From the NCBI GenBank assembly GCA_964492125.1, contig CAZBJE010000009.1:2202-66201 (forward strand): a stretch of DNA of 64,000 nt, written 5' to 3'. A program made the translations under genes and the position numbers. The stretch is from an uncultured Pseudobdellovibrionaceae bacterium (GTDB taxonomy: Bacteria; Bdellovibrionota; FAC87; UBA2466). The notes below the pieces were generated by a model. The model saw only the letters and a list, made by a program, of their open reading frames with translations. It was not told the origin of the DNA and did no database searches. Positions 10,455 to 55,541 of this stretch are shown here, in pieces. The number at the start of each line of letters is the position of its first letter. Within the stretch, counting starts at the first letter, position 1.

Positions 10455-10490
10455 CTTATCGGCGTAAAACGCGCTTTAATTGACGGCCAA

Positions 10491-13237: not shown

Positions 13238-13240
13238 GGT

Positions 13241-13280
13241 GACCCCTTCAATTCAGACACAATCTGAATCATACGGGGTC
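13241..13280 (-). promoter_or_regulatory. nested palindrome / leader hairpin directly upstream of the TonB-dependent receptor start codon
   Basis: The outer arms GACCCC (13241-13246) and GGGGTC (13275-13280) enclose ATTCAGA-cacaa-TCTGAAT (13251-13269). On the mRNA the 3' arm contains the GGGG of the only SD-like sequence (GAAGGGGTCACCATG). Confidence 0.45.
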
Positions 13281-13328: not shown

Positions 13329-13368
13329 TCAGGGTGGGCACGAGATCCCCGGTTTTTTGGAGTGCAAA

Positions 13369-14796
13369 ATGCGTTTCCGTCTCGCGTCTCTCTTCAGTTT
13401 TCTGCTTTTGGTCGGCGCCCTACCCGCGTTTGCCATAGACGCCCCCGCTTTCTCCCACCCGGATGTCTCGATTTACCAGGCCCATGGTGGAAACTTCCAA
13501 GCAAACAGCCGGAGCGATTCTTCCGGCAATTTCTTTCTGTATTACGAACCGGTGGAAATCGTGCAGCAGGTAATCGAAGAAGTCCTGACCCGAACGTCGT
13601 GGGAAGCTCGCATCGCGTGGACCCAGAAACGCGCGTTAGGCGCCGACGGTTTTGAAGCCTTATCTCCCGCTGCAAAACTAAATTACCTCCAGCTTTTGGA
13701 GGTGCACCGTTTCCCCCTCCTCGCTTGGGATGGCGCGCGGAGTTTGATTTTGCAACGCAAACGCGGAGCGCCGGAATGGCTGGACGAACACCCCCGCATG
13801 GCCCACGCGCCAGGCGCAGGGATCGACGCCACGCTGTCTTATGAGTTCCCAGAAGTGGCGGTACGCCTGCCCGCGAAGTCCGTGCGCGCGGCGTTAACTC
13901 GCGCCGAGGAAGTGATTCGCCACACCGGGCTGTCCGATACCCTATTCAGCGTGGTGTTCGATATCGATGCCGTCCGGCTCGAGTCTCAGGGCACGGCTTT
14001 GTTTTCTTATCTCCAAGAAGTGAACGACGAGCTTTTTTTGGAAGCAGCCATGCGAAGCGTGGAGAATATTGTGAACCCCGAAATTCGCCCGTGGGAAGCG
14101 GGCCACAAGGTGCGGGCTGAAGGTATTATCGCGGAGCGCTTAGCGACTCCCTATGAACACGATTTAAACGATAAATACGATCCCAGCGGCACCTACCTCG
14201 GCTTGAAATTTCTCGGCATGCACGAGGGCAAGATGCGGCTGTCGTTTGAACTGCGGGGTGTAGAGGTGGATTTAGGAGTGGATGAATTTGCGTCGAGCTA
14301 CACCACCCGCGCGAAAATGAATGATGCGCGCCGCTACTTAGATGGGGTGCATAGTTTTGCAGTCTCACTGGTGGAAGGCGTCGCCGAGGACCACCATGTT
14401 TCCAGCCGTTACCTGGATCCAACCCACGCCAAAACGCTGTTAGAAAAACACGCTCGGCTGCGCAAATTCCGATCTATCCCAAGATTAGAGACGTTCGCGC
14501 GAGTCGTGCTCGACCAAGAAAACCCCGAAGGCATCCTCTTTCCCTTCTCTCGCCCCCAAGAAACAGATAACCGTGCAGTGGACGAATACGTGACGCGACT
14601 TGTGGAATTGGTAGTGCAGACCGAAGACGCCGTCGACGACGCCGACTTACGCCGACAATTACGAGAGGATTTTTGGGAGAACTACGAAAATTTCGCCCAG
14701 GGGGAACTCATGCGCACGCGTGTGCACTCGCTTCAGTGGATGAAGGCCGCGCTCGGCCCTTCTTGTGGGTTGGAGCGGTTGGCGGTGGGGTACTAG
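13369..14796 (+). CDS. secreted hypothetical protein
   Basis: ATG at 13369 has a GGAG 6 nt upstream. Signal peptide MRFRLASLFSFLLLVGALPAFA. I recognise no domain. Its stop overlaps the stop of the convergent giant gene (CTAG). Confidence 0.6.
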   Translation: MRFRLASLFSFLLLVGALPAFAIDAPAFSHPDVSIYQAHGGNFQANSRSDSSGNFFLYYEPVEIVQQVIEEVLTRTSWEARIAWTQKRALGADGFEALSPAAKLNYLQLLEVHRFPLLAWDGARSLILQRKRGAPEWLDEHPRMAHAPGAGIDATLSYEFPEVAVRLPAKSVRAALTRAEEVIRHTGLSDTLFSVVFDIDAVRLESQGTALFSYLQEVNDELFLEAAMRSVENIVNPEIRPWEAGHKVRAEGIIAERLATPYEHDLNDKYDPSGTYLGLKFLGMHEGKMRLSFELRGVEVDLGVDEFASSYTTRAKMNDARRYLDGVHSFAVSLVEGVAEDHHVSSRYLDPTHAKTLLEKHARLRKFRSIPRLETFARVVLDQENPEGILFPFSRPQETDNRAVDEYVTRLVELVVQTEDAVDDADLRRQLREDFWENYENFAQGELMRTRVHSLQWMKAALGPSCGLERLAVGY

Positions 14797-17700
14797 TATC
14801 GGGTTCGGTTGCGCATTTCGCGGGCGAGAAGCCCCAACGAATAAGCCGGGCTTAAACCGCCAGTTTCGTTAGCAACTCGGTTGGCGACGTACGTTTTGAA
14901 GGCTTCTGGCGCCAAGCCGTAGTCCGTCGCTACGCTTTCCACAACACGGGCAATTTCGTCGTTTTTGAAATTCCGGGTTCCTGGATTGACCACGTCAACC
15001 GCCGCTACTTGGCGATGGAAATTTTCCAATGCGCCGTATTCGGTTTTGGCCCTAGTCAGAGCTTCCGCGCGCGCCGTTCCAGCGAGAACATCCGCCGTGA
15101 GTTTTTCCCGTACAATGTAATCCAAAAATGGATCGACCTCGCCCAACCGCCGTTCCAATTCAGGGGTTTTGGCCAAGGCCGCCTTGAAAAAGCCTTTGAT
15201 CTTGTCTTCCGGTACGCCTTTTTGCACTAGCTTGGTGGTGAAAATGGCCATGAAAGCTTCAGAAGAATTGGCGTGATTGAAATCCCCCAAGTTGGCTTCC
15301 TTGGCAATGAGGTCGCGCACCGTAGTCTTTACTTTATTTCCTTTTTTATCCACCGTGTCGATCAAGACGTAGTCCAACAACGGGGCCTGGATATTGACCT
15401 CGCCCGCTCGGCTGCGAGAAATTACTTCGTCTGCGATAAGTTTAGGTAGCGCATCGATAACGGCATTTTTTGGATTGGAAGACTTCTGGCTCATGTACGC
15501 GCCTTCCCCAATGCTAGCGAGAGCGGCGTAGAACGGATCTTTGATTTGAGTTCCGTTAGCAGTCGTATAAAACCCTTTGCGGTAGGTTTCCACTACCCCC
15601 TGGAGACCGTCTTGACTATGGTTGACCATGGATTTGACGAGGTAAATCGCGGCCGGCGAGACATTTGGGTTATTTTTCAGCATTCGCAGCGCCAACAAAT
15701 CATCGAACGGTGCCATGCCAGTGACGCTATCGACTCCGGAATCGCTGAGGTTTCGTAAGAAAGTTTGCAATTGAAAATTGTTTGCGAAATTTTCACCAAA
15801 CGACTTCTTATCGTCGTTAAACCCATGCTTTTTTACCATCGCAGTGGTGAACATACCCCCGACCATTTCAAAACTGTTGATGGCGGGCGCCAGCTTTAGT
15901 TTCGGCGCGGCTTTAGTGAGCAAATTGGAGAGAGGCTTGAGCACGGCGCCTTTGAAGAACATTCCCGCACCCGGCGCCAAAGCCATGGCCATCCCAGAGC
16001 TCTTGGCGTTTTCATAGATATCGGTAAAGCCACCAACCGTGTACTTCGCAATCGGCATGCCGCGAGCGACGTCGACACTATCGGGCACGCCGTTATTGTC
16101 AGTGTCGATTTCATGGCGAACACTTTCGGGAAACTCATACCACCGACCCGCGGTCATCGCTTCTTGCCAATCCGGAACGCCGTTGCGATCTTCATCGATG
16201 GCATTAGCCCTGCCCGTAGCCCGCGCTAGTCGGTAGGTGCCCATACCCGCATTCAACGGCATGGACCAAAACGAACTGGTGGCCCCCATTTTAGCCATTT
16301 TGTAGGAGCTCTGGGCGAAGTCGACGCCTTTTTTGATCCACCATACTTTGCCGGCTTGTAGACTCGCGGCGGCCAACCTGCCGTACGTATCATAGCGGTT
16401 GAGAAGTTTGAGAAGCTTGCGGTACTTCATTAATTTAGCGGCGCCCTTTAGTGCGACGATCCCCACCCCGGCCGGCCCGGCTACAATCACGATCGCCGCG
16501 GTGGCGGCCAGCTCTAGTACCGTCGACAGAATTTCGTCACTCACTATGCCGTACGTTTTGAGAATGCCTTCTAGCATATCCCGATGCTGGGTAATCATTG
16601 CTCCGTACTTGAGCGCTAGGTCTTTCCTAGCTTGGTCGGCAGCCACTTCATGGCCATCGTACTTGATTTTTGCGCTACCCAGCTCGCTGAGCTGGGTCAT
16701 GGTGGAAGCGACGTCGTTGAACATTTCGCCGATCGCGTGATCGTTGCCCGTATCACCCCGAACTGCTGCGCGCTTGGTCATCTCCCAAGCACCGCCAGAT
16801 TTTTCAATGGCTAGAGGCAAGTCACCATTGTTTGAAAGCAGGCGGCGAGCCCGATCCGCTTTGCCTTCTATCTCCGGACGTAGAGCAGCGTAGTCCTTGA
16901 AAACGTAGTGGGTCGTCTTTTCGTGCCCATTGAGATCCGTGGGCTGATTTTGGTAGCCCGAGCCCTCTCGTCGGGTAACGAGCGTGTTGGGCCCCAGCGC
17001 CGCGGTGTCGCGCTGGTAGCTAGTTTCTATGAACGCATTGTGTACTTTCTGGTGAAGTTCGTCCTCACCCATCGACCCGGCTTGGGCATTTGGGTTAAGG
17101 GCGTGAGTCTGCGCGGAAATCAGGCCGTAGTAGTCATTGAGCATTCCCATGAACTGCGAGCGTGTGAATTTTTGACCCGGCTTAAGTTTTTCATCGTCGG
17201 ATACTTTATGAAGTTGGGCAGCATCCCACTTCCAGAGATCTCCAACTGATTCGCCTGTCGGAGTCATTCCAATTTCCTTGAGGTCCGATTCGATCTTTTT
17301 CTTTTTCTGCGCGATATCGACCGATTCGCCAGCCGCTTGGGCAACCAGCTGCATGAAGGCACTCCAAGCCTTTTCCTTTGTCATCTTATGAGCCGCCGTG
17401 CCGGAACTCATCCTAAAGACCCAGTCTTGGGCCATTTTCAGGCCACCTACACGCCGCAACCACGCCTCGCGCTCTTTCGGCGATTGCTTCATTCTAGCGA
17501 AATCCATTTTTTCTGGATGTGCATTCGGGTTGCTTACCAACCCGTCGGCAATCGAACGGCCCCACTGCAAATCACGGCGCAAAGTGAATTGATGATAAAG
17601 CGCTCCGTTCGCCTCGGCTTCCGTCTTTGGTTGCTTGTCCTCGGGACAGTTTTTCCCAATACCGCCCTGGAGCGTCGCAACCAACTGATCAGCTTTCAGG

Positions 17701-20700
17701 CCGGGTTCCGAACTACGGGCCAAGAGCATCAGGTCTTTTCGGAACAGTTCCAGTTCATGGGCGTTTTCCGTAGCCTGCAAAGACGCATGCTCTTGGAGAG
17801 TGTGATCGGCATTGAAAAGTAAATCCTTCGAACCTTGCGGCCCGTGCTTGGCATAGAGTTCCTTCAAATATTCCAGCTCGGGGGGAGAAAGCGGGCAAGT
17901 CTCCTGCGCTTGGCATTGTTTCAAGACCGCATCAAGCTGTTCTTGCAAGGGCTGCTGCGATTTGCCGTACTGGGTGATCTTCAGAATCTCGTTCCAAAGC
18001 TCTTGAGTCGCAGCATCATCCTTTTTGGGGTCATTCCCATCCACTAAGAAGCCCCGCACGGCATACTGTGCGACCGCGGCATTCAACTTAGCCGAAAACT
18101 CTGGATCATTCTGCGACATGTCCAGCAGGCGCCGAACGCGCGTTTCCATTGGAATGGGATCCTGGTCACCCGGCGCACGCGCCGGAAAGGAGCGCATATG
18201 AGCGAGAGCCAATAGGCCCCAAGCATCTTGCTGGGGAGAGTTTGCGGTTTTGCGTTCTTTAGAACTCGCTGCGGCGATGGCGTCTTCGACTTCTTTCAAT
18301 TTCTTTTCTTGTTCCGCGGAAAACTTTTTGTCTTCCGGCTGCCAGTAAAAACCGGAGCTTTTCGTCAGTTCGGCAATCCGCGCATCCAAAGCTCGGACAT
18401 CATTCAGCAGCTTGTTGTAGGCAGCCGGTACACGCGCGTTCCGACCTTGCGGTAGGCTCGGCCTCATATCTCTCATCTTTTCCCGGATCGCAGAGGCTTC
18501 TGATTTTTTTGCAACCAATTCCCGGAACTCTTTTTCTGGAAGTTTGGGGTAAGCCTCGCGTCGTTGCTTAGCTAAGGTCTCTTGCAGCTTCCGCTGGGAT
18601 TTCAAAAACTCTTTGTTTTGGGCATCTATTCGCACGCGCACGGCCGCGTCGGAAAGTGTCTCCGATAGCAAATCCCGGTGTTGCGACTGCCAGCGCGAGA
18701 GGGCCCGGCGTCGCAGAGCCTCCGCCCCCGTCATCCCATCGTCATATTCCATAAAGGAGGGATCCCGAATCAGCTCTTCCACCGAACGTTGACCACATTC
18801 TGCCACGGCACGAATCCGTTTGCGTTCCGCCAGCTGTTCTTTCAACCCGGCCAAATGTTCCGCACGTGCAGTCGGATCAGGGAGAAAGGGTTTGAGCAGC
18901 TCATCCGCTTTCTCAGTGTGGCCCGCTTCAAGATGGGCCATCAACGCCCGGGAATAAAGCATTCCGGCAATGCACTCCGCGACGTCCGGAGTACCCTCGC
19001 ACTGAGGAAAAGCACCCACCATACCCGGAAGCATCGAAGCCGTGCTCGGACTCATTTCACCATTCGCCAGGATTTCTCGAACGGCATCGCCGGCAAGCGT
19101 ATTCTGTTGGGCCGTTCCGTCGGTGAGCAGGTGATGCATACGCGGCGACACCGTGCGCAAGGCTTCCGCCAAATGGGCTTCGGGGTGTTCCGTAGGTACC
19201 GTCGCCAATAGCTCTGAGTAACGTTTGGGACTCAGATTGGCTTGTAGCTGGCGGAGCATTGAGGGGCCTAAATCGGGCGATTGCCCAAGATAAGTAAGCA
19301 AAGCGGATTCGGCGCCAATCGGTAAACCTAGTTCTGGATCGTGAGAAGCTTTTGCCTCTTTTAACGCTTCGAGCAGTTTCTGCCCTACTTCGCCCGCCTC
19401 CCCGGCCAATGTCTTCTGCTGCGCCAGGGTCGCGGCTTGGAGTGCGACGTTGGCGGAGTTCAGCGTGGGAGTCAGGGCCGCGGCGTCTGGAACATCGCCG
19501 TAAAGGGTTTTCGAATCGTGTCCCCGCGCCCGCATTACGAGCGAAACTAAAGCGAGCGCATCACGCTCCGCCGGTCCCAAGTTTTTTTCCTCCAGCAAAG
19601 CTTTCTCGGCAGCTTCGGCAACCAAGTCACGCTGGAGGCCACTTAGATTTTTGGAACCAATCGAAATTCCCTCGGGCAAAACAAGCGCCGAATGAGCAAG
19701 TGCACCTTGCAAAAGATTGCGCAGCGGCTCATCTGAATCGCCCTGGTTTAGCCGAGAAATCAACGCCATAGTCTGCACTAATGAATCTTTTCCCGCCGGG
19801 TCGAAGGCTATCTTAGCCAATTCATCGAATGGAATGAAATTGGCGTGAAATCCATCCTTATTGAGCCGCGCCTGCCCTTCCTTATCATCTTTGGCGGTGT
19901 GTTCGAGCAAACTGGCGAGCAACTCGAGACTTAACAGGTTGAGGTTTTTTTGGAGGCCTATTCGATCTTGCGCACTCAAACCCAATCCACGTGTTTGCAA
20001 AGCAGCAGCGATGCGCTCGATGAAAGGAGCCGACGGTAGGCGATCTCCGTTTTGTAAAGCCTTGCGTTCGAGCGCAAGTTGGCGAGCATAAAAATGGGGA
20101 GTAGATGCGCCGAAGTCCGACCATATTTCATTTCGGAACTGACTCTGGGCGCTATCTAACCGTTTCATTAAGTCAGAAACTTCGGGACGAAACTTCTGCA
20201 GGTCGGTGGCGCGCTGAAAATCGAAGCGCTCATCACCCAGCATTTGATGCAGGCGGTCGCCCAGCTGCAGGTCACCTTCGTTCAAGCCAGCGGTATGATC
20301 CGCCGTCAGCGGGTGAGAAAGCGCAGCGCGCAACTCACCCGTTCCCAAATAGGCATTCTTATTCGCAGCCGTGATCACCGCGGCTTTTTCCGGCGGCATG
20401 ATCCCCAAAAGTAAGTCGCTGTCGTGGGGCGCGGCATAGTCCATGGCTGCCAGCTGACTAGTGAGAAAACTGCGCAGTCTTTCCGCAGCAATTCCTTTCC
20501 ACGGCTCCCCGGGGCGAGCGAAAACTCCGCGGTCTTCTAAGCGAGATAAAACTTGTTGGTAGTAGGGGCGTAGCGCAGGGTCGGCGCGGTCCTGATGAGT
20601 AGAAAACTGTCCCTTCTCGGAATGGGGGGCCACGATTTCGGCCAAACGCGCTCGAGCGGCGCTCAGTTTTTCCTTGGGCAAAAGATCGCTTTGGAGCAAG

Positions 20701-21683
20701 TCATTCCCGCCCTCGGTCAGCGGTGACAAACTGTAACCTTTGGTTGATTGAGCGATCTCGCCATTGACCAAAAGATTTCGGAAGTAGTTAGCCCGGTCCC
20801 ATTCTAAAAAGAAATCAGCGGGAGGGGAGGCTCCTGCCCGCTCCCCATAGAGAAATTTCAGCATTCTTTTTTCGTCGTCATTGGCCAAGGCATCCAGATC
20901 AGCCAGAGTGCGTAGAGTTTTGCCCTTAAGCTTTTGATGGAACGCCAAAACCATTTCTTTGAGCTGTGTCGATTCCGCCGTATGGAGCTTTGCGTTCGAG
21001 CACTCTTCGCGTTTGCTGAGGGTGGTCAGGCGGTTGACGGAAATTTCGTCCGCAACAGCCGCCGCGAGTCGTGAGGGCGGAAGTTTTTCCAGCTCCGCGT
21101 TTTGCGCGTGCAGGTACTGGAACATCACGTTCAGAGGCGAAGGAGTCACCTTCACCCCAACCCCTTGGCTCGGTTTCATTCCCATTTCCCAAAATTCCTT
21201 GAGCGAATTGCTGAAGGGAGTACTCGGATCGCAGACCAAGCTCATTTGGTAGAGCAACAGAATATCGGGCATGAAAATCGAAAAAGACGTTTCCGTTTTC
21301 ACTTCGAAAGGATTCCCCGGGCCACCGGTTTTTTTGCTATCGAATAAGCCAGAGAAAGCCGGTTTGGTTGATCGATCATCGAAGCGCAATTCACCCGCTG
21401 GCGCTGGAGTTTGAAGTCCCGCAGCCGGACGATCTAAGTTGGGCAAGAAAGAACGGGACTGGGCGCCCACCGTCGGCAGGTGACTAGGATCACAGAGGCC
21501 TCTACCGGCCGCGATCACATCTTTCACGCTTTTTTCGCACCAGGGAGATCCCAAACGGCGACCGAAACCGACCGGTACGATTGTGCGCTTATCGGGTGTG
21601 GAATGCTTTGCCGGCTCTTGGGCGAACGCGGCGAACGAGAGGAGTGCAAGCAAGCAAAGCGTTGAAATTCTTTTTGGAATCAC
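14793..21683 (-). CDS. giant secreted protein, paralog A (2296 aa), no recognisable catalytic domain
   Basis: Uninterrupted 6.9-kb ORF. GTG start follows GGGGAGGGG. Signal peptide MIPKRISTLCLLALLSFAAFAQE. Gly/Ala-rich hydrophobic helices and two DxDxNGVPD loops are encoded at about 16068-16540. Confidence 0.85.
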   Translation of the reverse strand: MIPKRISTLCLLALLSFAAFAQEPAKHSTPDKRTIVPVGFGRRLGSPWCEKSVKDVIAAGRGLCDPSHLPTVGAQSRSFLPNLDRPAAGLQTPAPAGELRFDDRSTKPAFSGLFDSKKTGGPGNPFEVKTETSFSIFMPDILLLYQMSLVCDPSTPFSNSLKEFWEMGMKPSQGVGVKVTPSPLNVMFQYLHAQNAELEKLPPSRLAAAVADEISVNRLTTLSKREECSNAKLHTAESTQLKEMVLAFHQKLKGKTLRTLADLDALANDDEKRMLKFLYGERAGASPPADFFLEWDRANYFRNLLVNGEIAQSTKGYSLSPLTEGGNDLLQSDLLPKEKLSAARARLAEIVAPHSEKGQFSTHQDRADPALRPYYQQVLSRLEDRGVFARPGEPWKGIAAERLRSFLTSQLAAMDYAAPHDSDLLLGIMPPEKAAVITAANKNAYLGTGELRAALSHPLTADHTAGLNEGDLQLGDRLHQMLGDERFDFQRATDLQKFRPEVSDLMKRLDSAQSQFRNEIWSDFGASTPHFYARQLALERKALQNGDRLPSAPFIERIAAALQTRGLGLSAQDRIGLQKNLNLLSLELLASLLEHTAKDDKEGQARLNKDGFHANFIPFDELAKIAFDPAGKDSLVQTMALISRLNQGDSDEPLRNLLQGALAHSALVLPEGISIGSKNLSGLQRDLVAEAAEKALLEEKNLGPAERDALALVSLVMRARGHDSKTLYGDVPDAAALTPTLNSANVALQAATLAQQKTLAGEAGEVGQKLLEALKEAKASHDPELGLPIGAESALLTYLGQSPDLGPSMLRQLQANLSPKRYSELLATVPTEHPEAHLAEALRTVSPRMHHLLTDGTAQQNTLAGDAVREILANGEMSPSTASMLPGMVGAFPQCEGTPDVAECIAGMLYSRALMAHLEAGHTEKADELLKPFLPDPTARAEHLAGLKEQLAERKRIRAVAECGQRSVEELIRDPSFMEYDDGMTGAEALRRRALSRWQSQHRDLLSETLSDAAVRVRIDAQNKEFLKSQRKLQETLAKQRREAYPKLPEKEFRELVAKKSEASAIREKMRDMRPSLPQGRNARVPAAYNKLLNDVRALDARIAELTKSSGFYWQPEDKKFSAEQEKKLKEVEDAIAAASSKERKTANSPQQDAWGLLALAHMRSFPARAPGDQDPIPMETRVRRLLDMSQNDPEFSAKLNAAVAQYAVRGFLVDGNDPKKDDAATQELWNEILKITQYGKSQQPLQEQLDAVLKQCQAQETCPLSPPELEYLKELYAKHGPQGSKDLLFNADHTLQEHASLQATENAHELELFRKDLMLLARSSEPGLKADQLVATLQGGIGKNCPEDKQPKTEAEANGALYHQFTLRRDLQWGRSIADGLVSNPNAHPEKMDFARMKQSPKEREAWLRRVGGLKMAQDWVFRMSSGTAAHKMTKEKAWSAFMQLVAQAAGESVDIAQKKKKIESDLKEIGMTPTGESVGDLWKWDAAQLHKVSDDEKLKPGQKFTRSQFMGMLNDYYGLISAQTHALNPNAQAGSMGEDELHQKVHNAFIETSYQRDTAALGPNTLVTRREGSGYQNQPTDLNGHEKTTHYVFKDYAALRPEIEGKADRARRLLSNNGDLPLAIEKSGGAWEMTKRAAVRGDTGNDHAIGEMFNDVASTMTQLSELGSAKIKYDGHEVAADQARKDLALKYGAMITQHRDMLEGILKTYGIVSDEILSTVLELAATAAIVIVAGPAGVGIVALKGAAKLMKYRKLLKLLNRYDTYGRLAAASLQAGKVWWIKKGVDFAQSSYKMAKMGATSSFWSMPLNAGMGTYRLARATGRANAIDEDRNGVPDWQEAMTAGRWYEFPESVRHEIDTDNNGVPDSVDVARGMPIAKYTVGGFTDIYENAKSSGMAMALAPGAGMFFKGAVLKPLSNLLTKAAPKLKLAPAINSFEMVGGMFTTAMVKKHGFNDDKKSFGENFANNFQLQTFLRNLSDSGVDSVTGMAPFDDLLALRMLKNNPNVSPAAIYLVKSMVNHSQDGLQGVVETYRKGFYTTANGTQIKDPFYAALASIGEGAYMSQKSSNPKNAVIDALPKLIADEVISRSRAGEVNIQAPLLDYVLIDTVDKKGNKVKTTVRDLIAKEANLGDFNHANSSEAFMAIFTTKLVQKGVPEDKIKGFFKAALAKTPELERRLGEVDPFLDYIVREKLTADVLAGTARAEALTRAKTEYGALENFHRQVAAVDVVNPGTRNFKNDEIARVVESVATDYGLAPEAFKTYVANRVANETGGLSPAYSLGLLAREMRNRTRY

Positions 21684-21802
21684 GGCCCCTCCCCTGTGCG
21701 TATCGGTATTCTAAAGTGCAAGATAAAGACCTGAATGTGGGTGTATACAATTATGAAATCATTGATGAATACGCGGTGACGGACTACGGCAATGTAGAGG
21801 AT
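21684..21802 (-). promoter_or_regulatory. conserved 119-nt leader/promoter region of giant gene A
   Basis: About 88% identical to 28890-29008. Contains an AT-rich core with the TGTATACA palindrome (21742-21749) and the SD GGGGAGGGG. Confidence 0.5.
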
Positions 21803-21822
21803 TTAGGCAGTGTTCAGGGCGA
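21803..21822 (-). pseudogene. 20-nt relic of the 3' end (stop plus last codons) of the lipoprotein gene 29009-30154
   Basis: ttaggcagtgttcagggcga versus ttagtcagtattcagggcga at 29009-29028 (18/20). The relic would encode ..ALNTA*, against the real ..ALNTD*. Confidence 0.8.
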
Positions 21823-21824
21823 AC

Positions 21825-24800
21825 CTAATACCGGGTTCGATTGCGCATTTCGCGGGCTAGTAATCCCAATGAATAGGTGGGGTTAAGGCCATTGGGCTCG
21901 TTGGCAACTCGGTTGGCGACGTAGGTCTTAAACGCTCCTGGCGCCAACCCATAATCCGTCGCTACTTTTTCCACCACACGGGCGATTTCCTCGTTCTTGA
22001 AATTACGCGTACCGGGTGTCACCACATCCACCGCCGATACTTGGCGATGGAAATTCTCTAACGCACCATAATCGGTCATTGCGCGCGTCAGTGCTTCAGC
22101 GCGCGCGGTTCCGGCGAGCACATCGGCCGTGAGTTTTTCTCGCACAATGTAGCTTAAGAATGGCTCAACCTCGCCTAAGTGCCGCTCCAATACGGGAGTC
22201 TTGGCTAGCGCCGCTTTGAAAAAACCTTTGATTTCTTTTTCCGGCACCCCTTTTTGTACTAGCTTTGTGCTGAAGATAGCCATAAACGCTTCAGCAGAAT
22301 TGGCGTGATTGAAATCACCCAAATTGGCATCCTTCGCAATAAGGTCGCGCACCGTCTGCTTTACTGCATTTCCCTTCTTATCCACCGTATCGATCAAGAC
22401 GTAATCCAACAAAGGCGCCTGAATATTCACCTCGCCCGCTCGGCTGCGAGAGATTACTTGGTCCGCAATTATTTTTGGTAGCGCATCGATGACGGTGTTT
22501 TTTGGATTTGAAGCTTTTTGACTGAGGTACGCACCTTCCATCATGCTAGCGAGGGCGGCCCAAAAGGGCCCTTTGACCTGAGTTTTGTTGGCGGTGGTAT
22601 AAAATCCGTTGCGGTACTCTTCCACTATACCTTGCAATCCGTCTTGACCATGGTTTACCAGAGATTTGATGAGATAGAGCCCGGCCGGCGAGATATTTGG
22701 GTTCTTGTTTAACTTGTATGTCGCCCATAAATCATCGATCGGAGCCATGCCCGTGCCGCTATCGATTGCAGAATCGATGAAGTTCCGACCGAAGGTCTGC
22801 CATTGAGAATTGTTTGCGAAATTTTCGCCGAATGACTTCGTGCCGTCGTTTAACCCGTGCTTATTCGCCATCGCGATGGTGAACATGCCTCCAGCCATTT
22901 CAAAACTATTGAAGAACGGAGCACTCTTTAACTTCGGCGCTGCTTTGGCGAGAGCCCAGTTGATGGGTTTGATCGTAGCCCATTTGAAAAGTTTTCCGGC
23001 GCCGGGAGCTAGCGTCATTGTGAGCGCATTACTCTTGGCGCTTTCATAAATATCGGTAAAACCGCCGACCGTGTATTTCGCGGGCGGCATGCCGCGCAAC
23101 ACGTCGACGCTATCGGGCACTCCGTTGTTGTCGATATCGATACCAGCCCGGACGTCTTCGGGAAACTCGTACCATTGACCCGCGGCCATCTTTTCTTGCC
23201 AATCAGGAACGCCGTTGTGGTCTTTATCGATTTTATTGGCCAGGCCAGTAGCTTGTGCCAATCGAATCGCCCCAAACAAGCTATTCGCAGGCAGAGCCCA
23301 AAGCGAACCGGCGGCACCCGTCTTGGCCATTTTGTAAGAACTTTGGGCCAGGTCGACGCCTTGTTTAAGCCACCAAACTTTACCGGCTTGCAGGCTCCCT
23401 GAGGCCAACCTTCCATATGTGCCATAGCGGTTAAGAAGCTTGATAAGTTTACGGTACTTCATCAATTTAGCGGCGCCCTTGAGAAAGGCGATTCCCACCC
23501 CAGCCGGCCCGAAGACCATAAAGATCGCACCGCCGGCAGCGAGCTCCACCAAAAGCGGCAAAATTTCGTCGCTCAATGTACCGTATGTCTTAAGAATGCC
23601 TTCCAGCATTTCTCGGTTCTGGCTAAGCATCGCTGCGTACTTGAGCGCTAGGTCTTTTCTAGCTTGGTCGGCAGGAACTTCATGTCCATCGTAGGTGATT
23701 TTTGCGCTACCCAATTCACTGAGCTGAGTCATGGTGGAGGCGTACTCATTAAACATTTCGCCGATTGCATGATCATTGGCGGTGTCCAACGGTACTTCTC
23801 TAGCTCCGTGCTCGTTCCCCGGTTTGGCAATAATGCCTAAAGTAGAAACCAAACCGAGGGGGCCGAGCGGGCCTAGCGGGGACGTGGCCCCAACGTGACG
23901 GGCCATTTCGGCAGAAGTTTTCCCATTGGGACCGATGGGCTGGATGCCTGCACGCTTGGTCATCTCCCAGGCGCCGCCAGATTTTCCAATAGCTAGAAAC
24001 AAGTCCCCGTTGTTGGAAACGGATCGGCGAGCCCTATCTGCCCTGGCTTCTATCTCCGGACGGAGCGCGGTGTAATCCTTGAATTCATAGTGGAGGGCGT
24101 TTTCAAGCCCGCTGAGTTCCTCTGGTTGGTTATGATAGGCAGAGCTATCTCTTTTCCGAACTACCGTACGGGGGCCCAGCGCGGCAGCGTCCCGCTGGTA
24201 GCCTGCTTCCATGAAGGCATCGTGCACTTTTCGGTGCAATTCGTCCTCGCCCATCGACCCAGCCGGGGCATTAGGGTTAAGGGCGTGCGTCTGCGCGGCT
24301 ACAAGGCCGTAGTATTGATTGAGCCTTCCCATGAACTGGGATCGAGTGAATTTTTGGCCCGGATTGAGTATCTCATCGTCGGAGACTTTATGGAGATTGG
24401 CGGCATCCCACTTCCACAGATCGCCGACCGATTCGCCAGTCGGAGTCATACCGATCTCTTTAAATTCAGCTTCAATCTTTTTCTTCTTCTGTGCAATTTC
24501 CATCGACTCGGCTGCAGCCTGTGCGATTAGCTGCATGAAGGTGCTCCAAGCCCTATCTTCGCTCATCTTGTGAGCCTGAGTTCCAGAGCTCATGCGAAAG
24601 ACCCAGTCTTGCGCCATTTTCAAACCACCCACTCGCTGCAGCCAAGCGTCTCGCTCTTTTGGCGATTGCTTCATTCTGGCGAAATCCATTTTTACTAGGT
24701 GTGCATTTGGGCTGCTTACCAATCCGTCGGCGATGGAACGCCCCCAATGCAAATAGCGGCGCAACATGAGTTGGTGACGGTAAGCGGATTCCAACTCCCC

Positions 24801-27800
24801 GTCTTTTGGCATCAATTCTTCTGGGCAATTCTGGCCAATCGTACCTGGAAGCGTTTCTACGAACATATCTTCTTTGACGACGGGTTCTGAACTACGCGCC
24901 ATCGCCATCAAGTTTCTCCGGAATACTTCAAGTTCATGGGCATTTTCTGCCGCTTGCAGAGCCGAGTGCTCCTCGAGAGTATGATCCGCGTTGAAAAGCA
25001 GATCTTTAGAACCTTGCGGCCCGTGTTTGGCGTAGAGTTCTTTTAGGTATTCCAGCTCAGTGGGAGAGAGTGGACAAGTTTCCTGCACTTGGCATTGCTT
25101 CAAAACCGCATCTAGTTGCTCTTGCAAGGGAAGCTGCGACTTATCGTACTGAGTAATCTTCAAAGTCTCGTCCCAAAGTTCTTTGGTCGCCGCATCATCC
25201 CGCTTAGGATCGCTGCCATCGATGCGTTCTGCTATAAAGCCTAGTTGGGCATACCGTAATACGGTGGAGCCCAACTTAGCCGAAAATTCGGGATCGTTTT
25301 GCGCTATTTGCATGAGGCGTGCAACACGCGTTTCCAGTGGAATAGGATCCTGGTCGGCCGGCGCACGCGCCGGAAAGGAGCGCAAATGGGCAAGTGCCAA
25401 TAGCCCCCAAGCATCTTGCTGGGGAGAGTTTGTGGTTCTGCGTTCTTGAGAACTCGCCGCGGCGATGGCGTCTTCGACTTCTTTCAGTTTCTTTTCTTGT
25501 TCCACCGAAAACTTTTTATCTTCCGCCTGCCAGTAAAAACCGGAGCTTTTCGTCAATTCTGCGATGCGCGTTTCCAATTCTTTTAATTCGCTCACAAGAT
25601 TGGTGTAAGCAGCCGGTAAGCGCGGGCTTCGGCCTTTCGGCAGACTGGGCCTCATGGCCTTCATTTTCTCCTGGATCGCAAAGGCTTCCGATTTTCGTTG
25701 AACCAACTCCCGGAATTCCTTATCGGAAAGTTTGGGGTACGCGTCGCGTCGTTGCTTCAACAATGTACCGTGAAGTCTACGCTGGATTTTCAGAAATTCT
25801 TGATTTTCGGCAGCCAATCGCGCGCGCACGGCAGCGTCCGACATGGTGTCCGAAAGCACACCCCGGTGCTGCGCCTGCCAGCGCGAAAGAGCTCGACGCC
25901 GCATTGCCTCCGCCCCTGTCATCGTATCGCTACGTTCCATGAAAGAAGGATCCCGTATGAGCTCTTCCACCGAACGCCGACTGCATTCCGCGATACTGCG
26001 GATACGTTTGTGAAACCCCATATCCTTTTTCATTGCTGCCAAATGTTCCGCACGCATGGCGGAATCAGGGATCACGAATTTAAGCAGATCGTCCGCCTTC
26101 TCAGCTTGCCCGGCTTCAAGGTGGGCCATGACAGCACGCGAATAAAGGACCCCGTAGACACATTGCGAACTATCCGCAGCCTTCGCACAGATAGAAAACG
26201 CATCCATCCGCTCGGCGTCCACCAAAATGGGAAGCATTCCCGCCGTGCTTGCACTAATTTCGCCGTTCGCCATTATTTCTCGGACCGCATCCCCCTCCAG
26301 CGTATTTCTCTGAGCGATTCCGTCGGTAAGCAAGTGATGCATACGCGGCGATACCGCGCGCAATGCTTCCGCCAAATGGATTTCGGGTTGTTCTGCAGGT
26401 GCTGTCGCCAATAACTCTGCGTAGCGTTTGGGACTCAGATTGGCTTGCAGCTGGCGGAGCACGGAGGGGCCCAGATCCGGAGATTGCCCCAGGTAAGTAA
26501 GTAAGGCGCCTTCGGCGCCTATCGGTAAACCCAGTTCCGGGTCGCGCGAAGCCTTTGCGTCCTTTAGCGCGTCGAGCAGTTTCTGCCCTACTTCGCCCGC
26601 TTCCACCGCCAACGCTTTCTGCTGCGCCAGAGTCGCAGCTTGGAGTGCCACGTTGGCGGAGTTCAGCGAGATGGTGAGGGCCGCAGCGTCTGGAACATCG
26701 CCATAGAGAGTTTTCGAATCGTGGCCCCTCGCCCGCATTACCATTGATACTAGTGCGAGCGCGTCTCGCTCCGCGGGTCCCAAGTTCTTTTCTTCTAGCA
26801 AAACTTTCTCCGCAGCTTCGGCAACTAAGTCACGCTGGCGGCCACTTAGATTCTTGGAACCAATCGAAACTCCCTCCGGCAGAACGAGCGAGGAATGGGC
26901 GAGCACACCTTGCAAAAGCTCACGAAGGGGTTCGTCGGAATCCCCTTGGTTCAAACGCGAAATTAAAGCCATTGTCTGGACGAGTGCGTTTTTGCCGGCT
27001 GGAGCGTAGGCAACTTGGGCTAACTCATCGAAAGAAATGAAGTTGGCATGAAAGCCGTCTTTATTTAGGCGCGCCTGCCCATCCCTATCGTCTTTGGCAG
27101 TGTGTTCCAGCATTTTTGCCAACAGCTCAAGACTTAGGAGATTGAGGTCTTTTTGAAGAGCGATTCGATCCTGTGCATTCAAGCCCAACCCCCGCGACCG
27201 CAAGACTGCTGCGATGCGATCAATGAGTGGAGCCGAAAAGAGGTGTTCTCCATTTTGTAAGGCATTGCGTTCGGACGAAAGTTGCCTGCCATAAAAATGA
27301 GGCGTGGATGCACCATAGTCGGACCAAATTTCATTTCGGAACTGACTCTGAGCACTTTCTAACCGTTTCATCAAGTCAGTTACTTCGGGACGAAATTTCT
27401 GCAGGTCGGTGGCGCGTTGAAACTCGAACCGCTCATCTCCCAGCATCTGGTGCAAGCGATCGCCTAGCTGCAGATCTCCTTCGTTCAATCCCGCGGTATG
27501 ATCCGCCGTAAGCGGGTGAGAAAGTGCCGCGCGCAACTCTCCCCTTCCCAAAAAGGCATTCTTATTCGCCGCCGTTATCAATGCGACCTTCTCTTGTGGC
27601 ATTATCTCCTTCAGCAAGTCGGTATCATGCGGTGCCGCATGGTCCATTGCCGCCAATTGGCTCGTCAAATAGCTGCGCAGTCTTTCTGCGGCAATTGCCT
27701 TCCACGGCTCCCCGAGGCGCGCAAAAACTCCGCGTTCTTCCAGGCGAGACAGAACTTGATGGTAGTACGGGCGTAGCGCAGGATCGGCACGGTCCTCTTG

Positions 27801-28889
27801 TGGGTGATAAAACTGGGCATTGTCAGAATGGTGGGCGGCGATATCAGCCAAACGCGATCGAGCGGCGCTCAGTTTTTCCCTAGGCAAGAGATCGCTTTGG
27901 AACAAGTCATCGCCGCCCTCGGTTAGCGGTGAAAGGCTGTACCCTTTGGTGGATTGGGCGATCTCACCATTGACCAATAGATTTCGGAAGTAGTTTGCGC
28001 GGTCCCATTCCAAAAAGAAATCAGCGGGAGGAGAAGTTCCTACCCTTTCCCCGTAGAGAAAATTCAACATTCTTTTTTCATCGTCGCTGGCCAAGGCGTA
28101 TAAATCGGCCTGAGTGCGTATAGTTTTGCCCTGGAGCTTTTGGTGGAACGCCAAAACCATTTCCTTTAGCAGGGTCGACTCCGCCGCATGAAGCTTTGCG
28201 TTCGAGCACTCTTTGCGTTTGCTGAGGGTGGTAAGGCGACTGACGGAAATTTCATCTGCAACGGCATTGGCAAGGCCCGAGGGCGGAAGTTTCTCCAGTT
28301 CCGCGCTTTGCTCGTGCAGGTACTGGAACATCACATTGAGCCGTGAAGGGGTAGCTTTTACTCCAAACCCCTGGCTTGGTTTCATTCCCATCTCCCAAAA
28401 TTCTTTAAGTGAGTTGGTGAACGGCGTTCCGGGATCGCAGACCAGGCTCATTTCGTAGAGCAGCAGGATATCGGGCATGAAGAGGGAGTAAGACGTTTCC
28501 GTTTTCACTTCGAAGGGATTCACTGCGCCGCTGATTTTTTTGCTATCGAACAAACCAGAGAAGGACGGCCTGGAGGGTTGTGCATCAAAGCGCACTTCAC
28601 CCGCTGGCCCGGGAGATTGAATTCCCGCAGCGGGTCGATCCAGGTTGGGCAAGAAAGGGCGGGACTGGGCGCCCACCGTCGGCAAGTGATTGGGGTCACA
28701 TAGACCTCTTCCGGCCGCGATCACATCTTTCACGCCTTTTTCGCACCAAGGCGAACCTAAGCGGCGACCGAAATCAATTGGAACGATAGTGCGCTTCTCG
28801 GGGGAAGAATGCTTAGCCGCTTCTTGGCCGAACGCGCCAAACGAGAGGAGTGGCAGCAACAAAAGCGTGGAAATTCTTTTCGTAATCAA
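21825..28889 (-). CDS. giant secreted protein, paralog B (2354 aa)
   Basis: Uninterrupted 7.1-kb ORF. TTG start follows the same GGGGAGGGG SD. Signal peptide MITKRISTLLLLPLLSFGAFGQE. Colinear with paralog A apart from a roughly 50-aa insertion. Confidence 0.85.
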   Translation of the reverse strand: MITKRISTLLLLPLLSFGAFGQEAAKHSSPEKRTIVPIDFGRRLGSPWCEKGVKDVIAAGRGLCDPNHLPTVGAQSRPFLPNLDRPAAGIQSPGPAGEVRFDAQPSRPSFSGLFDSKKISGAVNPFEVKTETSYSLFMPDILLLYEMSLVCDPGTPFTNSLKEFWEMGMKPSQGFGVKATPSRLNVMFQYLHEQSAELEKLPPSGLANAVADEISVSRLTTLSKRKECSNAKLHAAESTLLKEMVLAFHQKLQGKTIRTQADLYALASDDEKRMLNFLYGERVGTSPPADFFLEWDRANYFRNLLVNGEIAQSTKGYSLSPLTEGGDDLFQSDLLPREKLSAARSRLADIAAHHSDNAQFYHPQEDRADPALRPYYHQVLSRLEERGVFARLGEPWKAIAAERLRSYLTSQLAAMDHAAPHDTDLLKEIMPQEKVALITAANKNAFLGRGELRAALSHPLTADHTAGLNEGDLQLGDRLHQMLGDERFEFQRATDLQKFRPEVTDLMKRLESAQSQFRNEIWSDYGASTPHFYGRQLSSERNALQNGEHLFSAPLIDRIAAVLRSRGLGLNAQDRIALQKDLNLLSLELLAKMLEHTAKDDRDGQARLNKDGFHANFISFDELAQVAYAPAGKNALVQTMALISRLNQGDSDEPLRELLQGVLAHSSLVLPEGVSIGSKNLSGRQRDLVAEAAEKVLLEEKNLGPAERDALALVSMVMRARGHDSKTLYGDVPDAAALTISLNSANVALQAATLAQQKALAVEAGEVGQKLLDALKDAKASRDPELGLPIGAEGALLTYLGQSPDLGPSVLRQLQANLSPKRYAELLATAPAEQPEIHLAEALRAVSPRMHHLLTDGIAQRNTLEGDAVREIMANGEISASTAGMLPILVDAERMDAFSICAKAADSSQCVYGVLYSRAVMAHLEAGQAEKADDLLKFVIPDSAMRAEHLAAMKKDMGFHKRIRSIAECSRRSVEELIRDPSFMERSDTMTGAEAMRRRALSRWQAQHRGVLSDTMSDAAVRARLAAENQEFLKIQRRLHGTLLKQRRDAYPKLSDKEFRELVQRKSEAFAIQEKMKAMRPSLPKGRSPRLPAAYTNLVSELKELETRIAELTKSSGFYWQAEDKKFSVEQEKKLKEVEDAIAAASSQERRTTNSPQQDAWGLLALAHLRSFPARAPADQDPIPLETRVARLMQIAQNDPEFSAKLGSTVLRYAQLGFIAERIDGSDPKRDDAATKELWDETLKITQYDKSQLPLQEQLDAVLKQCQVQETCPLSPTELEYLKELYAKHGPQGSKDLLFNADHTLEEHSALQAAENAHELEVFRRNLMAMARSSEPVVKEDMFVETLPGTIGQNCPEELMPKDGELESAYRHQLMLRRYLHWGRSIADGLVSSPNAHLVKMDFARMKQSPKERDAWLQRVGGLKMAQDWVFRMSSGTQAHKMSEDRAWSTFMQLIAQAAAESMEIAQKKKKIEAEFKEIGMTPTGESVGDLWKWDAANLHKVSDDEILNPGQKFTRSQFMGRLNQYYGLVAAQTHALNPNAPAGSMGEDELHRKVHDAFMEAGYQRDAAALGPRTVVRKRDSSAYHNQPEELSGLENALHYEFKDYTALRPEIEARADRARRSVSNNGDLFLAIGKSGGAWEMTKRAGIQPIGPNGKTSAEMARHVGATSPLGPLGPLGLVSTLGIIAKPGNEHGAREVPLDTANDHAIGEMFNEYASTMTQLSELGSAKITYDGHEVPADQARKDLALKYAAMLSQNREMLEGILKTYGTLSDEILPLLVELAAGGAIFMVFGPAGVGIAFLKGAAKLMKYRKLIKLLNRYGTYGRLASGSLQAGKVWWLKQGVDLAQSSYKMAKTGAAGSLWALPANSLFGAIRLAQATGLANKIDKDHNGVPDWQEKMAAGQWYEFPEDVRAGIDIDNNGVPDSVDVLRGMPPAKYTVGGFTDIYESAKSNALTMTLAPGAGKLFKWATIKPINWALAKAAPKLKSAPFFNSFEMAGGMFTIAMANKHGLNDGTKSFGENFANNSQWQTFGRNFIDSAIDSGTGMAPIDDLWATYKLNKNPNISPAGLYLIKSLVNHGQDGLQGIVEEYRNGFYTTANKTQVKGPFWAALASMMEGAYLSQKASNPKNTVIDALPKIIADQVISRSRAGEVNIQAPLLDYVLIDTVDKKGNAVKQTVRDLIAKDANLGDFNHANSAEAFMAIFSTKLVQKGVPEKEIKGFFKAALAKTPVLERHLGEVEPFLSYIVREKLTADVLAGTARAEALTRAMTDYGALENFHRQVSAVDVVTPGTRNFKNEEIARVVEKVATDYGLAPGAFKTYVANRVANEPNGLNPTYSLGLLAREMRNRTRY

Positions 28890-29008
28890 GGCCCCTCCCC
28901 TGTGCGTATCGGCATTCTAGGGTGCAAGACAAAGACCTGAATGTGCGTGTATACAAATATGAAATCATTAATGAATACACGGTGACGGGCTACGGCAATG
29001 CAGAGCAA
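28890..29008 (-). promoter_or_regulatory. conserved 119-nt leader/promoter region of giant gene B
   Basis: Same length and layout as 21684-21802, with TGTATACA at 28948-28955. Confidence 0.5.
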
Positions 29009-30154
29009 TTAGTCAGTATTCAGGGCGAGTTCGCGGAGCGCCGCACGGAGAAGCTCCTGGCGCTTGGTGAGGAGGTTGGTAGGCTTGGCAAAGGACGCAT
29101 CTAGACGCATGGCACCAGGCTTATATCGAACAAGATTTTCAGCATCTGTCGAAGCAATAGTCGGAAGCTGGGCTAACGTAACCTCAGTGTCTTTTCTGAG
29201 TGACCGTTGCAATGCGGAAAGTTTTGTTTTTTGCGCTTTCCATTCATTCAAACGGCTCTGAAGAAGCTTTCGGTACGATATGTGAGCAGCGGCGGCCTCG
29301 GAATTAAAGAGGTCCCCTCTCGCGCCTTCCAAATCAACCCAGGAAACACCTCGCCCGAAACCGAGAGAATCTGAAAAAACAGCCCTGGCGGTGAGAAGCA
29401 AACCTCGATCTTCTTGGTCTGGGTCCCGATTATCAGAGCCAAAAACAATGCGAATGGATGAGAATTGCGCGGCCAGTTCACGCGCACTTTGGATTTTTAG
29501 ATCAGATAGCAAGATGACCCAGTCGGGCGACTCCGTTTGTGCTTTCAATTCCTTCTGTATTGCATTGGAGGGAGAATCCAACTTAAAGCCCGCGCCCAAC
29601 TTCTCGCCCTTAGCAAGCGTAGTTACGGACAAGAATAATATTTTCTTCCCATGAATGGAAACCATCTGGGATTTGCGAAATAGCGACTTTACTTCGCCAT
29701 GAGTTAGGTTGGTCGACAAAAAAGGAAACTGCGCCCGCGCGACGAGTTTCCGCATCTCAAGTAGGCCCATCTCCGTATCCGCGGCAGAGACACCCAAAGA
29801 AAAAAGTCCCAACTCATTGAGCGCATCCAGAAGCATTTCCCGCTTAGTCTGGAGATGGCGAGGCCGAAGTTTCGTTCCTGCTCGAGGATAAAAAGTTCGG
29901 CCAGCGCTCAAATGAAAAAGGCCAGCAAGAGATTCACTCATGCCGGCCTTCAAGTTCGCTTCTCTATCAATCCCGCCCAACTGTGATATCGAACAACCGC
30001 AAACTTCCATCTCTAGATGGCGGTTGCCCGCGTAAAGGAAACGAATGGGTTCGACAGATCCGGATGAAGCGGGAATTCGATTGGACGACGAGGCGCACCC
30101 CCCGGCCAACTGCATTACCACGCCGACAGCTAACGCAAAATAAAGGCGCTTCAC
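29009..30154 (-). CDS. lipoprotein with degenerate 5'-nucleotidase/metallophosphatase-like scaffold
   Basis: GTG start overlaps the upstream stop (GTGA). Lipobox MKRLYFALAVGVVMQLAGGC. The block order FLYAGNRH / EVCGC..LGG / SLGVSAAD / FPFLSTNL / ILFLSVTT / WVILLSD...IVFGSDN mirrors the metallophosphatase motifs, but most metal ligands are replaced. Confidence 0.45.
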   Translation of the reverse strand: MKRLYFALAVGVVMQLAGGCASSSNRIPASSGSVEPIRFLYAGNRHLEMEVCGCSISQLGGIDREANLKAGMSESLAGLFHLSAGRTFYPRAGTKLRPRHLQTKREMLLDALNELGLFSLGVSAADTEMGLLEMRKLVARAQFPFLSTNLTHGEVKSLFRKSQMVSIHGKKILFLSVTTLAKGEKLGAGFKLDSPSNAIQKELKAQTESPDWVILLSDLKIQSARELAAQFSSIRIVFGSDNRDPDQEDRGLLLTARAVFSDSLGFGRGVSWVDLEGARGDLFNSEAAAAHISYRKLLQSRLNEWKAQKTKLSALQRSLRKDTEVTLAQLPTIASTDAENLVRYKPGAMRLDASFAKPTNLLTKRQELLRAALRELALNTD

Positions 30155-31221: not shown

Positions 31222-31531
31222 AGGTATCCTCCAGACTGAGTCTAGGTATCGCAAGTTCCAGGCCATGAAAGGCACCTCTGGGCACTCACGTTAAATAATG
31301 AAAACGAAAAACTTTTTCAGCGGAAGAAACGCAAACCCCATGTATTCACTGAGTCTTAATTGTAGAGCGTTTGCGCATTGAAGTAAACTTTGAGTACGCA
31401 CTCTCTGAGTACGGTGCCCCCCGTTTCCGGCGGCACTGCCAGTATGCGTCGCGTTACGGCGCCTGTGTCACACTCGCCCCCCTCCACGCGTCTCTCCCCC
31501 GAACGACATACAACTCTAGGGAGGAACGTAA

Positions 31532-32827: not shown

Positions 32828-32854
32828 AAGTTACCCCCTAAAGTTCCCCTCCAA

Positions 32855-32892
32855 CTGCCGCCGTTGAGATCGAAAGGTCTTTGCGGCGGCAG
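32855..32892. terminator. candidate bidirectional terminator hairpin between htrA and ybiT
   Basis: CTGCCGCCG (32855-32863) pairs with CGGCGGCAG (32884-32892) around a 20-nt loop, followed by gttctatttt. Confidence 0.35.
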
Positions 32893-32895
32893 GTT

Positions 32896-36992: not shown

Positions 36993-37034
36993 GATTTGCT
37001 ATGGTGCGTCACGTTTTTTACCATAGAGGTACTC

Positions 37035-55488: not shown

Positions 55489-55541
55489 TTGCCTATCTCT
55501 CGTTGCCTATTCCCGGCTCAACTGTGCTATGCGATTCGCCT

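Follow-up and report, generated by a model that had tools for sequence, protein, structure and literature searches.

A central question raised by the stretch of DNA given above is how a bacterium comes to carry, side by side, two full-length copies of a giant gene that differ from each other by 21%. The stretch comprises 64,000 nucleotides (nt) of contig CAZBJE010000009.1 of an uncultured Pseudobdellovibrionaceae bacterium and is called the window throughout; the two genes, copy A and copy B, encode proteins of around 2,300 amino acids (aa). A preliminary description, made from the letters of the window, had read the pair as an ancient tandem duplication with a visible junction scar. The tandem arrangement and its joint are clearly defined, and the second copy is specific to the lineage of the window; the attribute 'ancient', however, is not established. 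Instead, we tentatively favour a scenario in which one-sided illegitimate recombination recently stacked a divergent allele, over an old duplication in situ. The elements of the pair, in the order in which they lie along the window, are the following.

14793..21683, minus strand: giant gene copy A, 2296 aa, GTG start
21684..21802, minus strand: leader A, 119 nt, with CCGATA at 21706-21701 and a Shine-Dalgarno-like GGGGAGGGG at 21694-21686
21803..21822, minus strand: relic of the 3' end of a lipoprotein gene (TCGCCCTGAACACTGCCTAA), i.e. its last six codons and stop codon, with an 18/20 match to 29009-29028
21823..21824, minus strand: two bases at the novel joint (GT on the minus strand), which match neither parental flank
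21825..28889, minus strand: giant gene copy B, 2354 aa, TTG start
28890..29008, minus strand: leader B, 119 nt, the original intergenic region, with CCGATA at 28912-28907
29009..30166, minus strand: UshA-like lipoprotein gene, 385 aa, lipobox LAGGC, whose last 20 nt represent the source sequence type of the relic

Alignment bears out that the two genes are colinear on the same strand, head to tail, with five small indels as the only interruptions and a copy spacing of 7032-7206 nt, and the NCBI gene calls on the 69,218-nt contig from which the window is taken give the same lengths for A and B. The similarity is high, as had been judged by eye, although the measured nucleotide identity of 78.7% in the coding regions (85.9, 89.8 and 60.5% at codon positions 1, 2 and 3) is slightly lower than the 80-85% first estimated; the two proteins are 79.1% identical. 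A repeat search across the window found the two copies of the giant gene and nothing else repeated. When both units were aligned with MAFFT together with 400 nt of flank on each side, identity jumped from background to approximately 88% exactly at 21822 in A and 29028 in B, and homology ended with the stop codons at 14793 and 21825, respectively. Beyond the relic, 9 of 40 nt are identical, as are 22 of the 60 nt downstream of the two stop codons; both values are near chance, and homology therefore stops at the unit limits. The duplicated unit thus begins within the lipoprotein gene, 20 nt before its end, and stops with the stop codon of the giant gene, with no further homology on either side, and includes a leader of exactly 119 nt before each gene that has acquired no indels (107/119 identical). 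On this structure the preliminary description was right.

It was also right about the short stretch between leader A and copy B, which is a real relic at a novel joint. This sequence is coding on the B side, where it forms the end of the lipoprotein gene, and non-coding on the A side, where it is separated from the stop codon of B (21825-21827) by a gap of 2 nt. Its agreement with the lipoprotein gene is far beyond chance: the probability of at least 17 matches in 20 at a fixed position was computed as 3.5e-8, and that of the 18/20 observed is approximately 2e-9 by hand estimate. One of the two differences is synonymous and the other alters the last residue, and of the 8 nt directly after the stop codon of relic and lipoprotein gene, five are identical between the copies. 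The second copy is owed to a single illegitimate joint, which links a site one or two bases past the stop codon of the giant gene with one that precedes the stop codon of the lipoprotein gene by 20 nt. This joint also occurs outside the assembly of the window. Unitig-level Logan contigs from two public wastewater runs cross it with 0 differences (run X1, covering 21681-21865; run X2, covering 21776-21967) and together take in leader A, the relic, the junction and the 3' end of B, and a run from a different study (X3) contains both A and B at 99% identity or more. Since independent contigs cross the joint without a mismatch, it is not an assembly artefact.

Is the doubling shared with related bacteria? 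The idea that the giant genes are orphans had to be abandoned, as nine relatives, seven of them full-length (2215-2417 aa), were recovered when a profile of the C-terminal halves was run exhaustively with HMMER. The full-length relatives align end to end at 22-29% identity and a C-terminal fragment aligns at 44%, so that A and B, with 79% mutual identity against at most 44% to the next family member, are by far each other's closest relatives. All eight family loci that could be read (8/8) carry one giant gene each. In four of them (L081, L082, L083 and L085, the first two on shorter contigs) the giant gene is followed directly by the gene for the same TonB-dependent receptor as in the window, i.e. 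the single copy resides at the same locus and not at a different one. L083 and L085 share synteny with the window across more than 20 kb, with htrA upstream on the opposite strand, followed by genes for a secreted protein of 373-389 aa, a UshA-like lipoprotein of 378-381 aa and the giant protein, and thereafter by TonB-dependent receptor, TonB, an MFS transporter and a C-methyltransferase with sugar-nucleotide genes. Gene order in the window is the same, except that a second giant gene and a gene for a 479-aa protein are present in addition. With a single copy in all readable relatives, four of them syntenic, the second copy is lineage-specific. The linkage of lipoprotein and giant gene holds throughout the family, whose members normally occur once, in a group of three genes that starts with one for a secreted protein of around 380 aa, and we refer to the genes for secreted protein, lipoprotein and giant protein as the cassette, the remaining parts of which, together with the additional gene, are located in the window as follows.

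30151..31275, minus strand: first gene of the cassette, 374-aa secreted protein, no family match
31359..31387, minus strand: match to a sigma-70-like promoter upstream of the 374-aa gene, a candidate promoter of the cassette by consensus match only
13357..14796, plus strand: convergent gene for a 479-aa secreted protein, no family match, at the right-hand end of the duplicated region

The cassette differs strikingly from its surroundings in its rate of change. Between the window (9006-13237 and 29009-34488) and L083 and L085, the flanking HtrA and TonB-receptor proteins are 58-74% identical, whereas the proteins of the cassette are only 20-34% identical, and thus the cassette evolves several times faster than its neighbours.

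Much closer comparisons come from wastewater, activated-sludge and bioreactor metagenomes, in which the organism was detected by way of Logan contigs. In runs from four further studies (X5; X15; X16, X7, X9 and X12; X20), copy A is present at 90-99% identity together with the 479-aa gene, the receptor gene and the htrA side, and nothing at 90% or more was found in these same runs over approximately 21.8-30.8 kb, i.e. the span of B, the lipoprotein gene and the 3' half of the 374-aa gene. In X5, contigs cover all but one of the 15 bins left of 22 kb but 0 of the next 13. When the threshold was lowered to 80%, the identifiable pieces on B turned out to be A-derived contigs with matching lengths and depths. 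X5 represents the closest of these A-only populations, being mostly 98-100% identical in A, with the others more distant. One X5 contig tracks the window to position 30796 inside the 374-aa gene and then runs into a differing sequence, absent from the window, that can be read as coding, from which it follows that the block is replaced in X5 rather than simply deleted. The point at which divergence from the window begins is not the same in all strains (30796 in X5, 30922 in X16); both points lie within the 374-aa gene, and to the left of them these related strains differ from the window. B-type sequence appears only in runs containing a strain 99-100% identical to the window (X1, X2, X3, X4, X6 and X17), with X21 contributing a single B contig of 151 nt.

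Within copy A, identity also varies among strains. An X5 contig at 16708-17133 has 21 differences in 426 nt (95% identity); other X5 contigs in A have 0-2 differences in 250-380 nt (99-100%). This unevenness suggests recombination inside the gene.

Both copies are genuine genes under constraint. By the Nei-Gojobori method, dS between A and B is 0.94 (pS 0.535) and dN is 0.125, giving a dN/dS of 0.13, with values of 0.04-0.25 in every 100-codon window along the alignment; A and B are both under purifying selection. The only sizeable difference between them is a private insertion of 50 residues in B (approximately 23787-23936 on the minus strand, coordinates derived by hand), which contains PLGPLGPLG and lies in a loop that varies in length across the family. 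Asymmetric evolution of one copy was considered and rejected, because a relative-rate test with the family as outgroup assigned 97 derived changes to B and 77 to A (p = 0.15). Subfunctionalisation or dosage selection, as suggested in the preliminary description, is a candidate explanation only. At the 885 shared four-fold degenerate sites A and B are 53% identical, and the matches are unclustered (longest run 10 against 9.9 expected; p = 0.21 for the variance between windows), i.e. there is no sign of gene conversion between the copies. Base composition is alike, with a GC content at third codon positions (GC3) of 0.587 and 0.571. Thus, the statement that both copies have stayed full length holds in so far as both are intact and under purifying selection; their long cohabitation does not follow, given the A-only populations, the conservation of the relic and the lack of conversion tracts.

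The leaders are far better conserved than the synonymous sites of the genes behind them: leader and relic together are identical at 125 of 139 positions, and the leaders on their own at 90%, which contrasts with the 53% at four-fold sites. A conserved promoter element of the FliA type can explain this conservation. In both window leaders CCGATA precedes the start codon by 17 nt, and it is present in all six leaders examined (6/6), i.e. also in those of L081 (2523-2641), L083 (9769-10000), L085 (9878-10000) and L088 (3876-4068). Measured against the CCGATA consensus (GCCGATAA), the -10 element reads ACCGATAC in leader A and GCCGATAC in leader B. In five of the six leaders, CCGATA lies 17-23 nt upstream of the annotated start; the exception is L083, with 68 nt to the annotated start and 26 nt to a better TTG start read by hand. 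Sixteen nucleotides upstream of CCGATA the relatives have TAAAC (L081), TATAC (L083), TAAAG (L085) and TAATC (L088, with TTAAT at 17 nt). All family leaders share TTGCA(C/T)-N-CCGATA, and most also have a GGAGG-rich ribosome-binding site. In Bdellovibrio bacteriovorus, TTAAG-N16-CCGATA is the FliA (sigma-28) pattern that Karunker et al. (2013, PMC3627812) reported for 92 of 140 attack-phase promoters. The window leaders and their four orthologues resemble these promoters in having CCGATA at a conserved distance upstream of the start; they differ in the weak -35 elements of the window, the host is only distantly related, and what is seen here is the motif only. Judged by this motif, each giant gene probably has its own promoter inside its leader, which would make the duplicated unit a complete expression unit, with the promoter in the leader, a ribosome-binding site and a 7-kb gene.

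How, then, could the pair have come about? In the history that we tentatively prefer, A and B would be old allelic lineages of a fast-evolving cassette that diverged to a dS of approximately 0.9 in separate genomes and were stacked in one strain only recently. The incoming DNA would have consisted of the 3' half of the 374-aa gene, the lipoprotein gene, the leader and B. At its left end, it would have been integrated by homologous recombination inside the 374-aa gene, and at its right end by an illegitimate join just past the stop codon of B, as in homology-facilitated illegitimate recombination. Of the resident upstream genes, only the final 20 nt of the lipoprotein gene would have survived the replacement, with the resident leader and copy A left untouched. 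Each copy would then be transcribed from its own promoter of the FliA/sigma-28 type, with CCGATA 17 nt before the start, and the strain would produce an envelope or secreted protein in two variants that differ by 21%.

Several otherwise separate observations fall into place with such a stacking event, which alone would account for the additional copy, the relic and the divergence of the upstream genes. If the strains are taken as clonal, that of the window falls within a group of A-only strains, and with X5 being the closest population and the others more distant, a single gain in the lineage of the window is more parsimonious. The state of the relic can be accounted for as well. If it had drifted in the manner of four-fold sites, 18 matches in 20 would have a probability of approximately 5e-4 (hand estimate), but under recent stacking, where the relic would have been coding until not long ago, the same match is nothing unusual. 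A long tandem residence would favour gene conversion, and the lack of conversion tracts would simply reflect that there was no such residence. These are also the reasons why the pair cannot be called ancient on present grounds: A-only populations of 90-99% identity, X5 among them, are without B at 90% or more, an old and neutral relic should look worse than the 18/20 match next to a leader with 90% identity as against 53% at four-fold sites, and gene-conversion tracts are missing despite the supposedly long neighbourhood of the copies.

A number of points weigh against recent stacking, however. Where strains recombine, a single-copy haplotype could pass from one to another, which weakens the argument from parsimony. 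The population evidence is drawn from Logan contigs of 1-8x depth, which show presence better than absence. In the A-only strains, every contig ends before 21795 and none crosses 21795-21830, and among the runs searched neither a B-only population nor a donor with B as its single copy was found. At the joint itself (21823-21824), no microhomology is recognizable. A compositional sign of B being foreign was sought but not found, with GC3 nearly the same in both copies. As to the promoter step, the -35 elements of the window, TTTAT and TTTGT, are weak with 2-3 of 5 positions, and the region was found in none of the RNA runs.

The most serious alternative is an old tandem duplication in situ, by unequal illegitimate exchange between sister chromosomes, after which both copies would have been kept by selection while diverging to a dS of approximately 0.9, and a single-copy haplotype would later have replaced the region from the 3' half of the 374-aa gene through the lipoprotein gene to B in the relatives. 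We regard this history as somewhat unlikely, yet several points support it. It is the classical and simplest origin of a head-to-tail pair with an end-to-start joint and requires no unseen donor, which agrees with no donor of B having been found; that A and B are by far the closest relatives of each other (79% versus at most 44%) and share the same base composition speaks for it, as do purifying selection on both copies and symmetric rates. A regulatory constraint on the leader could even extend over the relic. Its cost lies in the number of steps, i.e. at least two events (the duplication and the later replacements) and probably several losses, as every sampled A-type population except the window strain is without B at 90% or more. 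Moreover, it demands an extra constraint on a non-coding relic to keep 18 of 20 positions, when the next 8 nt retained only five, and it leaves the lack of conversion tracts to be accommodated.

A related but less probable alternative would place an old, shared doubling next to a hypervariable upstream block, made up of the 3' half of the 374-aa gene, the lipoprotein gene and the upstream giant copy, so that the relatives would possess a second copy more than 10-20% different from window B, which a read comparison that shows only window-like sequence would pass over. The low identity of the cassette between lineages (20-34% versus 58-74% for the neighbours) and the uneven identity within A among strains (in X5, 95% versus 99-100%) would fit such a block. 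Positive evidence for it did not emerge, however, as the pieces seen on B at the 80% threshold were A-derived contigs, and why A should be 94-99% identical while B is more than 20% diverged in the very same genomes would be left unexplained. Overall, we consider this unlikely. Finally, it is highly improbable that two strain variants of one gene were merely stitched in tandem by the assembler, for although the contig of the window was assembled from a metagenome and wastewater samples contain several related strains side by side, unitig-level contigs of X1 and X2 span the joint with 0 mismatches, A and B have similar depth in X1, X2 and X3, and a graph mis-join of sequences 79% identical would not produce a specific relic and sharp homology boundaries.

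Tandem segmental duplication by illegitimate or unequal recombination is well known in bacteria from work on duplication and amplification in Salmonella and E. coli. The window locus resembles these cases in its head-to-tail arrangement on one strand, its single end-to-start joint, the inclusion of a regulatory region together with the gene and the single copy in relatives; adjacency, sharp boundaries, single-copy relatives and independent support of the joint were all found. It differs in that its copies are 21% diverged and no longer prone to RecA-mediated collapse, that its joint is without microhomology and that the array occurs in one strain-level population only. Homology-facilitated illegitimate recombination, in turn, is known from natural transformation in Acinetobacter and Streptococcus pneumoniae, where the illegitimate end usually involves a few bases of microhomology. 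The likeness here is in the geometry proposed, with a homologous anchor in the 374-aa gene, an illegitimate end and gain coupled to loss; the difference is that the event at the window is a proposed one, with no donor of B found in the runs searched.

What the giant proteins do can be approached through their family, which is a previously unannotated one of approximately 2,200-2,400 aa from uncultured Bdellovibrionota-like bacteria. No match to Pfam at E <= 0.01 was obtained with the 11 aligned sequences (A, B and the nine relatives), none to NCBIfam at E <= 1 with A or B and none to sequences of the Protein Data Bank (PDB) at E <= 1 with the family profile. Word-index protein searches with copy A, the lipoprotein and the family alignment returned the window's own proteins only, with the index being swamped by the long queries, and pattern scans of genome, metagenome and viral contigs with an alignment of the giant protein yielded no relatives. 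Motifs conserved in the family are GxDxANYxRN, PHFYGRxLxxER, NGxPDWQDA, DxDxNGxPD and VNHGQDGxQG; the most conserved part of the giant protein is a C-terminal region of approximately 550 aa with two DxDxNGxPD motifs. The giant proteins have a Sec-type signal peptide and are predicted to be almost entirely alpha-helical, and A has a strongly hydrophobic segment of 39 residues (aa 1713-1751), with the AlphaFold models, computed from two-sequence alignments, having a pLDDT of 35-38 and being used for secondary structure only.

For the lipoprotein, residues 35-279 match the N-terminal half of NCBIfam model NF041198, an UshA-like (seleno)protein, with E = 4e-27. The score of 95 bits stays below the cut-off of 275 and the match spans positions 18-265 of 519, so that it is not a full-length match. 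The likeness to this metallophosphatase of the 5'-nucleotidase type consists in the alignment to the N-terminal half of the model; the window protein differs in being a lipoprotein, in representing half of the model only, at a score below the cut-off, and in having no Pfam domain call.

From the signal peptide, the hydrophobic segment, the conserved linkage, the type of promoter and the evolutionary rate, our best guess is that the giant protein is secreted or sits in the envelope, is part of the attack-phase regulon and acts jointly with the lipoprotein and the small secreted protein encoded in the same cassette. Between lineages it appears to undergo diversifying evolution. With two variants that are 21% different, the strain would have either two specificities or more of the protein. 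A bolder extension, which we consider rather improbable as a whole, is that the cassette is a hypervariable, FliA-controlled attack-phase envelope system, the old alleles of which are maintained by diversifying or balancing selection and exchanged between strains, with two of them stacked here in a way that broadens specificity. If so, this system would serve contact with prey or the environment in uncultured predatory Bdellovibrionota.

Tandem duplications whose joint can still be read are textbook material, and the pair is of modest interest in itself. What is new is a family of giant, secreted, all-alpha-helical proteins of approximately 2,300 aa, encoded in a conserved three-gene cassette of Bdellovibrio-like wastewater bacteria. 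The cassette combines fast evolution with a difference in copy number between near-identical strains, a pattern typical of surface or interaction genes. At the same time, the locus provides a test case for the possibility that diverged neighbouring paralogues may be stacked alleles, which is rarely checked when paralogues are dated by dS.

Two further explanations of the conserved leaders were considered and discarded. A structured RNA or riboswitch does not agree with the absence of an Rfam match, a folding z-score of +1.09 (i.e. weaker than shuffled sequence) and the lack of compensatory pairs. Gene conversion is contradicted by the adjacent codons 7-87, which show only 55% four-fold identity, and by the unclustered distribution of the matches. 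A consensus scan found neither a sigma-70 promoter nor a terminator in the leaders. Two of the related leaders contain a palindrome, GTGAC-N7-GTCAC, approximately 70-90 nt before the start of the giant gene (L081, ~2545-2565; L085, ~9900-9925), which looks operator-like and of which the window leaders retain GTCAC only. The annotated start of the giant gene in L083 (protein P0007) is probably 14 codons short, and an in-frame TTG after GGAGGGGAGGGG would restore a normal signal peptide.

On the other side of the pair, the convergent 479-aa gene separates A from the receptor gene and has no counterpart at the syntenic loci of the relatives; its stop codon overlaps that of A (CTAG) within the palindrome ACTAGT. 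At the start of the TonB-receptor gene, contigs of X1 and X2 each skip 192 nt (13051-13244) and a similar contig of X5 skips 146 nt (13102-13249); the skipped stretch may be a strain variant or a graph artefact.

Several open reading frames (ORFs) of the window have no Pfam domain, namely 36996-39821 (plus strand, 941 aa), 47555-49111 (minus, 518 aa), 50903-51961 (plus, 352 aa) and 55326-56300 (plus, 324 aa), and a further one of 1176 aa (51958-55488, minus) has a sub-threshold match to HEAT repeats only. Such Pfam-less ORFs are typical of a poorly sampled lineage. Shared synteny by way of the neighbouring ABC-F protein was found in none of 80 loci fetched. The best matches of this protein, at 68-71%, are to Pseudobdellovibrionaceae, Bacteriovoracaceae and Oligoflexia metagenome-assembled genomes, which puts the organism with uncultured Bdellovibrionota-like bacteria. 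Inside its coding region, CAAAGTTTGCAC-N9-GCCGATAT at 33795-33825 (minus strand) resembles the promoter of the cassette and is probably a chance match.

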